From assembly GCF_003334355.1 (NCBI RefSeq), contig NZ_QOWP01000019.1: a stretch of 64,000 nt of DNA. The stretch is one strand, 5' to 3'. The position numbers were made by a program, and so were the translations under genes. A model generated the notes under the pieces. It worked only from the letters and a program-made list of their open reading frames with translations, had not been told where the DNA came from and did no database searches. Below are positions 124 to 720 of the stretch, piece after piece. Position 1 is the first letter of the stretch. Each line of letters starts with the position of its first letter. The stretch is from Escherichia coli. Lineage in GTDB: Bacteria; Pseudomonadota; Gammaproteobacteria; Enterobacterales; Enterobacteriaceae.

Positions 124-152
124 AACCCTTAAGTTAGCGCTTATGGGAACTC
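124..152 (-). repeat. Possible degenerate terminal CRISPR repeat at the leader-distal end
   Basis: 29-bp segment one spacer length (32 bp) before the first canonical repeat; 3' end tgggaactc matches repeat end ggggaactc, rest diverged. Confidence 0.35.
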
Positions 153-184
153 ATCCCCTCCCAAAGTTTTTTCATGTTTTCTGG

Positions 185-579
185 CGGTTTATCCCCGCTG
201 GCGCGGGGAACTCGTTATCACCGAGTGCAGTAGCCCGCGCGCGCTCGGTTTATCCCCGCTGGCGCGGGGAACTCCCAGGGCGACCAGCGCCACCAGAATT
301 AATAATCGGTTTATCCCCGCTGGCGCGGGGAACTCCCATGGCATTTGGCAAACGTCATCAACATGTACGGTTTATCCCCGCTGGCGCGGGGAACTCATGG
401 GGTTAAAAGACGCGTCGCCATCAGGCGGCGGTTTATCCCCGCTGGCGCGGGGAACTCATCGTAGTTATACTCGCAGCAGTAATGCCGCCCGGTTTATCCC
501 CGCTGGCGCGGGGAACTCCACCCATCTTCCCTTATCGCCGGGTCGCGGAACGGTTTATCCCCGCTGGCGCGGGGAACTC
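185..579 (-). CRISPR. Type I-E CRISPR array, 7 identical 29-bp repeats and 6 spacers of 32 bp
   Basis: cggtttatccccgctggcgcggggaactc at 185, 246, 307, 368, 429, 490, 551 (61-bp period); this is the reverse complement of the E. coli I-E repeat GAGTTCCCCGCGCCAGCGGGGATAAACCG, so crRNA is read from the minus strand. Confidence 0.97.
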
Positions 580-720
580 TCTAAACATAACCTATTATTA
601 ATTAATGATTTTTTAAGCCAGTCACAATCTACCAACTTTACAGTATCACACAAACAACACATCCATTATGTTAAAGAACGCTTAATCCATTGATTAAAAA
701 GGTAAATATTTAAAATAACT
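580..720 (-). promoter_or_regulatory. CRISPR leader (AT-rich, adjacent to leader-proximal repeat)
   Basis: AT-rich tract directly abutting repeat 551-579 on the side upstream in crRNA sense; extent approximate. Confidence 0.55.

Follow-up and report, generated by a model that had tools for sequence, protein, structure and literature searches.

The CRISPR-Cas system of type I-E in Escherichia coli is normally split between CRISPR-I, in which the cas genes and the CRISPR2.1 array lie between iap and cysH, and CRISPR-II, which lies between ygcE and queE (ygcF); CRISPR2.1 and CRISPR2.3 both carry leaders with promoters, and CRISPR-II sporadically holds insertion elements (PMC3903273). The two loci are known to lie ~20 kb apart. 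The ygcE-queE interval of K-12 MG1655 was found to contain a pair of degenerate CRISPR2.2 repeats, separated by a 503-bp gap from a CRISPR2.3 array of seven repeats, which is followed by a 339-nt leader/intergenic region. The array analyzed here lies at the beginning of a 64-kb stretch of E. coli DNA (hereafter, the window), the whole of which was collinear with the E. coli core chromosome at 99-99.9% identity, from queE, eno, relA, barA, fuc and recBCD to ppdA/thyA. The window has a single tRNA-Met at 43559-43635, which may be real or a tandem repeat collapsed in assembly.

Like CRISPR-II of K-12 MG1655, this array is positioned beside queE in the same orientation and has a 29-nt repeat, 32-nt spacers and a 61-nt period, and window positions 580-917 (338 nt) were 95.9% identical to their K-12 counterpart. 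The ygcE side of the locus was present in all six compared genomes, including K-12, and falls outside the window here. Unlike the K-12 locus, with which it has no spacer in common, the array is interrupted by IS421, and the window holds the leader-proximal segment only; the repeat variant, read as + strand text, ends in ...GGAACTC here versus ...GGAACAC in K-12. The array also resembles CRISPR-I (CRISPR2.1 with cas3-cas2) in its identical repeat, its blockwise homologous leader and the same Cas proteins (PMC3903273). However, CRISPR2.1 directly adjoins cas2, whereas the present array would lie ~17-30 kb from the cas genes and possesses a separate leader type that even cas-less strains conserve (PMC3903273).

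The array displayed every defining feature of CRISPR-II/CRISPR2.3 and of type I-E that was tested from the window, and its cas partners appear to lie outside. It is very probably an E. coli CRISPR-II array split by an IS421/IS186-family element, with cas and CRISPR2.1 forming a separate locus at iap-cysH, ~17-30 kb to the left. The locus is already known and ordinary, and the array had been correctly spotted in a preliminary description of the same DNA; the two interpretive claims of that description, orphan status and a degenerate terminal repeat, were unsupported, as set out below.

Structure of the repeat-spacer array

The features at the start of the window were as follows.

1-145, + strand: non-coding right end of IS421 (IS4 family, IS186-like); the window starts inside the element
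123-145, + strand: 23-nt terminal inverted repeat of IS421, CAACCCTTAAGTTAGCGCTTATG; the same 23 nt are found inverted at the left end of the element
146-156, no strand: 11-bp target-site duplication GGAACTCATCC, copy on the right-hand side, from junction comparison with L001, L002 and L005
146-152: 7-nt repeat stub GGAACTC (last 7 nt of the CRISPR repeat), within the target duplication
153-156: first 4 nt of spacer W0, within the target duplication
153-184, - strand: spacer W0, 32 nt, crRNA sense CCAGAAAACATGAAAAAACTTTGGGAGGGGAT; its downstream (3') repeat is cut off by the IS
185-579, - strand: seven type I-E repeats and six 32-nt spacers, W1-W6 (exact repeat copies, 61-nt period)
214-245, - strand: spacer W1, 32 nt
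275-306, - strand: spacer W2, 32 nt
336-367, - strand: spacer W3, 32 nt
397-428, - strand: spacer W4, 32 nt
458-489, - strand: spacer W5, 32 nt
519-550, - strand: spacer W6, 32 nt, closest to the leader
580-751, - strand: AT-rich CRISPR2.3 leader, aligning with the CRISPR2.1 leader of L003; published Pcrispr2 region
752-917, - strand: remainder of the queE-to-leader intergenic region, with no recognizable intrinsic terminator
918-1589, - strand: queE (ygcF), a 223-aa ORF and the right flank of CRISPR-II

Seven exact copies of the 29-nt repeat CGGTTTATCCCCGCTGGCGCGGGGAACTC were present on the + strand, starting at 185, 246, 307, 368, 429, 490, and 551, with a start-to-start spacing of 61 nt throughout 185-579. 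When both strands of the 64-kb window were searched with up to three mismatches, seven matches were obtained, compared with 0.00 expected from 100 dinucleotide-preserving shuffles, and no copy beyond these seven was found in the window even at up to eight mismatches. The reverse complement of the repeat, GAGTTCCCCGCGCCAGCGGGGATAAACCG, is the E. coli type I-E repeat and is the same as the CRISPR2.1 repeat that lies first downstream of cas2e in the annotated E. coli genome L003. Spacers W0-W6 were all 32 nt long, and each differed from every other. The seven identical 29-bp repeats and six 32-bp spacers of the preliminary description were thus confirmed, with all six listed spacer sequences correct, as was its placement of the array next to queE, in the same direction on the minus strand.

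The predicted fold of the repeat RNA (-15.1 kcal/mol, z = -3.6) is a 4-nt loop closed by a 7-bp stem, after which comes AUAAACCG. This predicted stem-loop, together with the 8-nt 5' handle AUAAACCG, would fit the manner in which Cas6e recognizes type I-E repeats. A search for Rfam CRISPR direct-repeat families gave no match at E <= 1 over positions 1-3000 or at the gathering threshold over the whole window; such a match is no defining feature of type I-E arrays.

The leader was essentially identical to that of four other strains. Positions 580-751 were identical in L001, L002, and L005, except for one poly-A length difference in L001, and conserved blocks of the same segment could be aligned with the CRISPR2.1 leader next to cas2 in L003. 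At the equivalent position on the right flank, queE was annotated in L001, L002, L005, L010, L011, and K-12. The array is therefore of type I-E and is read from the minus strand, with its leader on the high-coordinate (queE) side.

An IS421 insertion forms the left edge of the array in the window

The preliminary description had proposed a diverged eighth repeat at 124-152, followed by one more 32-bp segment at 153-184. Alignment of 124-184 to other CRISPR-II loci upheld only the latter, as 153-184 is a spacer and 124-145 is an IS end. In the supposed repeat, positions 124-145 are 22 nt of the terminal inverted repeat of IS421, and positions 146-152 are the 7-nt stub. Window positions 1-184 corresponded, with one mismatch, to positions 20001-20184 of L001 and L002, in which the annotated IS421 transposase CDS stops 27 nt before window position 1. 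In these relatives, the element is 1338-1339 bp long and has perfect 23-nt terminal inverted repeats, CATAAGCGCTAACTTAAGGGTTG; the window holds just its last 145 nt, and the transposase gene is known only from the relatives. The IS421 end sequence is multicopy and was found at 8398 places in 2145 genomes.

Comparison of both junctions defined the insertion site. In L001, L002, and L005, the sequence at the left junction is ...CGGTTTATCCCCGCTGGCGCGGGGAACTCATCC|CATAAGCGC and that at the right junction is GCGCTTATG|GGAACTCATCCCCTCC; taken together they give ...CGGTTTATCCCCGCTGGCGCGGGGAACTCATCC|IS|GGAACTCATCCCCTCCC..., revealing the 11-bp duplication GGAACTCATCC. IS186 is reported to target 5'-GGGG(N6/N7)CCCC-3' (PMC5009759), and the reconstructed pre-insertion target, GGGG-AACTCAT-CCCC, is an exact fit to this published motif. 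The insertion carries the hallmarks of IS186/IS421 (IS4) transposition, namely, inverted repeats, a direct duplication, and a GGGG(N6/N7)CCCC target. It resembles known IS186/IS421 hotspot insertions in the N7 core, the 23-nt inverted repeats, and the 1338-1339-bp element. It differs from them in that the motif is composite, with the repeat end supplying GGGGAACTC and one particular spacer, W0, supplying ATCCCC as its initial six bases. The duplication here is 11 bp (GG + core + CC), whereas PMC5009759 describes the core alone.

As a separate observation, a repeat-spacer junction can form an IS186-family target motif by chance.

A degenerate terminal repeat marking the old end of the array would account for two details of 124-152, of which the last 7-8 bases, GGGAACTC, agree with the repeat end and which lies exactly one 61-nt period ahead of the first full repeat. 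Nevertheless, 124-145 is the IS421 inverted repeat, the mirror image of which lies at the opposite end of this 1.34-kb element, and 146-152 belongs to the 11-bp duplication, the other copy of which follows a complete repeat beyond the IS. Moreover, the array does not end here in the relatives, which carry 10-13 further CRISPR2.3 repeats beyond the IS, then degenerate CRISPR2.2 repeats (5-7 mismatches), and then ygcE. As a candidate repeat, 124-152 also failed on sequence, since nothing within eight mismatches of the repeat starts at 124. This explanation is refuted and retains virtually no probability. Before what looks like a degenerate repeat at the margin of an array is attributed to decay, the sequence should be examined for the end of a mobile element.

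Of 5426 complete E. coli genomes, 36 carried the full IS junction, and it was also found in one metagenome contig (L015), indicating that the insertion was inherited. Because the window starts inside the IS that splits the array, it contains only the leader-proximal part of a longer array, with the seven youngest spacers.

The cas genes lie beyond the start of the window in related genomes

When nine type I-E Cas protein sequences were searched against the 64-kb window by tblastn, the best E-value was 0.034, and no cas gene is annotated in the stretch of strain PSS-12 with which the window was collinear at >=99.9%. The earlier statement that the 64 kb contains no cas gene was thereby confirmed. 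Its extension to a Cas-less, orphan array was unsupported: in five of the five examined genomes that share the IS junction, PSS-12 among them, cas3 was located to the left of window position 1 at a distance of 17-19.5 kb. Between the array and cas3, these relatives carry ygcE, ygc genes, queD, and cysJIH. In comparison with the window, PSS-12 showed no mismatches and no gaps over 580-20000 (19.4 kb) and ~13 substitutions over the other 43 kb, and it is effectively a sibling strain. Its cas3, casA, casB, cas7e, cas5e, cas6e, and cas2e genes are intact, cas1e is frameshifted, and the CRISPR2.1 array is present.

A true orphan array, in a genome without type I-E cas genes, would have the appearance seen here, with an array and leader and no cas gene nearby in the 64-kb window. 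E. coli strains that lack cas-E and keep the CRISPR2.3 leader and array are known (PMC3903273), and cas genes are decaying in this lineage. Against this, the window starts within the array and extends away from the cas locus. Unlike the orphan arrays of cas-less E. coli, the present one belongs to a group in which 5/5 genomes with the identical IS junction have the cas-E locus, among them PSS-12, the closest relative, in which 19.4 kb of sequence matches the window with 0 mismatches and seven cas genes are intact beside the frameshifted cas1e. We consider orphan status highly improbable. The Cas-less appearance is best seen as an effect of the start point of the window, since all five genomes with the IS junction carry cas3 17-19.5 kb to the left, the cas locus of the source strain being placed by reference to these relatives. 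The main value of this analysis is thus a correction, as a 64-kb window starting inside an array cannot prove that a CRISPR locus is an orphan.

The presence and integrity of cas genes in the source genome were judged from relatives, the window itself covering no cas locus. In addition to the frameshifted cas1e of PSS-12, cas5e is split by IS3 in strain PCP06171, and cas3 has an internal stop in strain 214-4; independent inactivating cas lesions were thus present in three of the four relatives with inspected cas loci. As cas damage is this common among relatives, the activity of the system in the source strain is uncertain.

Three of the spacers match temperate phages

Spacer W0 adjoins the same IS in all the related arrays inspected, those of L001, L002, L005, L010, L011, and L015 among them. 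A protospacer (L008, 7004-7035) matching it at 32 of 32 positions, with an AAG PAM, was found in strain C41, where a P2-like prophage carries it within a tape-measure-like gene, and 29/32 variants with AAG were present in ~19 other genomes, the mismatches falling at positions 9, 19, and 21, outside the seed. The sharing of 153-184 with related arrays and its perfect AAG protospacer thus show that W0 is a genuine spacer; the preliminary description had reached the right result here on mistaken grounds.

Two further spacers led to a lambdoid prophage of strain STEC384. W2 matched at 32/32 positions in a small lipoprotein ORF of the lysis module (L006, 9001-9032), where the PAM position is AAA, which is non-canonical and one base from AAG. 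W6 matched the early region of this prophage (L009, 3992-4023), ~12.7 kb from the W2 protospacer, at 25/32 positions, with an AAG PAM and no mismatch among the 23 PAM-proximal bases. The blast E-value of the W6 match alone is 0.7; a chance match nevertheless seems unlikely because the PAM is canonical and the prophage is the one that holds the W2 protospacer.

For W1, W3, W4, and W5, no non-CRISPR match was present in E. coli genomes, and no target was found. The concatenated-spacer query was valid, as it recovered 208 E. coli genomes; at least one window spacer was found in 208 of 5426 genomes. In blastn searches (word 11, E <= 1), the seven spacers gave no match among PLSDB plasmids or the phages of INPHARED. 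Exact IMG/VR scans of all seven with N at every sixth crRNA position returned 0 matches, even for W0 and W2, which have known prophage protospacers, so that these negatives carry no weight. The comparison of spacers with phage, plasmid, and host sequences and the inspection of PAMs, both of which had been proposed in the preliminary description, thus yielded three prophage matches, two with AAG, and nothing from the phage and plasmid databases. At least three of the seven spacers (W0, W2, and W6) appear to be derived from temperate phages, one P2-like and two lambdoid, and AAG, one of the 5'-AAG/ATG-3' PAMs expected for type I-E, accompanies two of these three (W0 and W6).

Transcription and proposed working of the array

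In the K-12 orthologue, the leader promoter Pcrispr2 is weak and H-NS dependent and probably starts transcription ~95 nt upstream of the first repeat, and the type I-E system of E. coli is reported to be silenced under normal growth (PMC10011333). A strict promoter scan of the leader (580-760) found nothing, and a relaxed scan gave candidates at 7-8/12 only, such as TTAATC-18-TAACAT with the -10 at 673-668. There was no convincing sigma-70 consensus at the reported Pcrispr2 start, and none of the candidates could be confidently assigned to it. One weak promoter-like site was present on the minus strand at 829->802.

The preliminary description had considered read-through from queE into the leader conceivable. 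That the array is transcribed mainly in this way, and not from the leader promoter, would agree with the co-orientation of queE and the array, 338 nt apart, and with the lack of any terminator-like hairpin between 917 and 580; no terminator-like site was found in the whole of 100-1800, the queE-leader interval included. However, read-through is not needed because a leader promoter, Pcrispr2, has been published (PMC10011333). This independent promoter was reported in the K-12 orthologue, whose leader is 95.9% identical, and the homologous CRISPR2.1 leader works without queE upstream. Read-through as the main source of array transcripts is thus unlikely, and transcription from Pcrispr2 is the preferred reading.

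An IS421/IS186-family element entered a repeat-spacer junction at its preferred GGGG(N7)CCCC target, made by GGGGAACTC and the ATCCCC of W0, and split the array. The following course of events is proposed, its K-12-derived steps being carried over from PMC10011333 and PMC3903273. The weak, H-NS-repressed Pcrispr2 would transcribe the minus strand, as in K-12 (PMC10011333), and Cas6e would bind the repeat hairpins and cut at their 3' base to release 61-nt crRNAs from W6 to W1. By analogy with K-12, these crRNAs would load into Cascade, protospacers with AAG-type PAMs would be recognized, and Cas3 would be recruited to degrade the target; new spacers would join at the leader-repeat junction 579/580 through Cas1-Cas2 and IHF. 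W0 keeps its 5' handle, but judging from the anatomy of the junction, it probably does not undergo normal Cas6e maturation because its 3' repeat is reduced to 7 nt and has no hairpin. The older spacers beyond the IS would be parted from Pcrispr2 by 1.3 kb of IS sequence.

The IHF consensus WATCAANNNNTTR was matched perfectly once, on the minus strand at 683-695, which is ~104-116 nt away from the repeat. This match was rejected as the integration IHF site; it does not lie at the published -9 to -35 position, where the window has two mismatches.

Spacer turnover and the state of the system

The spacer order was compared among related arrays, reading from the IS to the leader. In the window, the order is W0 W1 W2 W3 W4 W5 W6. 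Strain C10 holds all seven spacers in the same order, with five extra spacers, including a duplicated pair, between W3 and W4. PSS-12 reads W0 W1 W3 x W5 W6, and the metagenome contig L015 has 14 spacers, W0-W3 and W6 among them. All seven window spacers are already present in other sequenced E. coli arrays, and the window array is thus one deletion variant of a longer ancestral array. The exact array was absent from the 5426 complete genomes, where the best match over 1 kb was ~92% identical because the spacer content differs; this absence of the exact spacer combination elsewhere is routine strain-level variation. As the leader-proximal spacer is common to several relatives, there is no sign of recent acquisition. 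The relatives differ by internal spacer loss and duplication, without new acquisitions at the leader end, which fits a largely dormant system. The scattered cas lesions, like the loss of spacers, agree with the published view of a system that is silenced, dormant and slowly eroding, and these points leave current understanding unchanged.

A stronger version of this view is that the array is a functionally dead relic, silenced by H-NS, with damaged cas partners and no immunity. The independent cas1e, cas5e, or cas3 lesions in 3/4 inspected relatives would be expected of such a relic, as would the variation of relatives by internal loss or duplication only, with no leader-end spacer unique to the window, and type I-E silencing in normal growth has been reported (PMC10011333). 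However, conservation of the seven repeats is perfect and the leader is undamaged. Moreover, E. coli prophages continue to carry protospacers that have AAG PAMs and match either perfectly or perfectly in the seed, and the interference genes are intact in PSS-12. We regard complete loss of function as a substantial possibility, though not the favored one; a largely dormant system fits the same spacer and cas patterns.

Possible recurrence of IS insertion at repeat-spacer junctions

Type I-E repeat ends (GGGGAACTC or GGGGAACAC), when followed by a spacer starting with N1-2CCCC, might become hotspots for IS186-family elements, an idea to which we assign a low probability. If true, older spacers would be recurrently severed from the leader promoter by IS186/IS421 insertion in a sequence-programmed manner, and the junction spacer would be stranded without a 3' hairpin. 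One event, with a perfect motif match, was seen here. A metagenome scan for independent IS421 insertions beside other spacers found only the same ancestral W0 event, in L015; the scan covered exact matches to one junction form in a collection in which E. coli CRISPR-II contigs may be few. The L015 contig begins ~52 nt inside the same IS end, and the window begins 145 nt inside it; contig breaks at a multicopy IS in short-read assembly would fit both starts.

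Lesions in the cas genes of related strains

Relatives that carry the same IS421-split CRISPR2.3 array were found to have mutually independent, inactivating cas lesions. The cas1e gene of the sibling strain PSS-12 was frameshifted, cas5e of PCP06171 was split by IS3, and cas3 of 214-4 contained an internal stop. The lesion sites in the cas loci of these relatives were as follows:
L012, 7893-8811
L003, 6566-8501
L011, 1-1431

Changes within the array and origin of its spacers

In the CRISPR2.3 array of strain C10 (L005, about 20245-20520), a two-spacer unit (acgtaacg... atcctctt...) occurs twice in tandem, which shows that these arrays alter through internal duplication in addition to deletion. 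Spacers W2 and W6 of the window (W6 being nearest the leader) had separate protospacers in a single STEC384 lambdoid prophage, lying ~12.7 kb apart at the following sites:
L006, 9001-9032
L009, 3992-4023
One possible source of this pairing is primed acquisition out of one phage; another is simply that the phage was met repeatedly.

IHF consensus match in the leader

On its minus strand, at 683-695, the leader matched the IHF consensus WATCAANNNNTTR (AATCAATGGATTA) perfectly; the first repeat of the array lies about 104-116 nt downstream of this site. The published IHF position is -9 to -35, and the match falls elsewhere. The leader of the cas2-adjacent array CRISPR2.1 retains this site only in part.

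Contig start and IS1 differences

The window (1-145) and L015 (1-52), the only matching metagenome contig, both start within one and the same IS421 copy, in its right end, a pattern to be expected where short-read assemblies break at multicopy IS elements. In PSS-12, which is otherwise near-identical to the window, fucP was split by an IS1A insertion, whereas fucP was uninterrupted in the window (about 31108-31116). In L001, an IS1 element lay between yqcG and ygcG, but it was absent from the window near 1888-1895.

tRNA-Met copy number and other RNA features

RNA features of the window included the following:
43559-43635, tRNA-Met (CAT), a single gene between amiC and mltA
20328-20687 (-), CsrB
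38868-39073 (+), GcvB
42089-42131 (-), ES036
PSS-12 and PCP06171 each carried three tandem tRNA-Met copies with a 110-bp period. Because the amiC-side and mltA-side flanks of the gene were joined in only 226 of the 5426 complete genomes, the best of these 226 having two copies, the single tRNA-Met of the window is either a rare state or a tandem repeat that collapsed in a draft assembly. CsrB, GcvB, and ES036, all of them small RNAs already known, were ordinary and occupied their usual chromosomal positions. Weak, sub-threshold Rfam matches to STnc370 were also obtained on both strands at 2728-2829, which corresponds to the gap between the convergent genes ygcG and eno; these matches most likely represent a bidirectional terminator hairpin.
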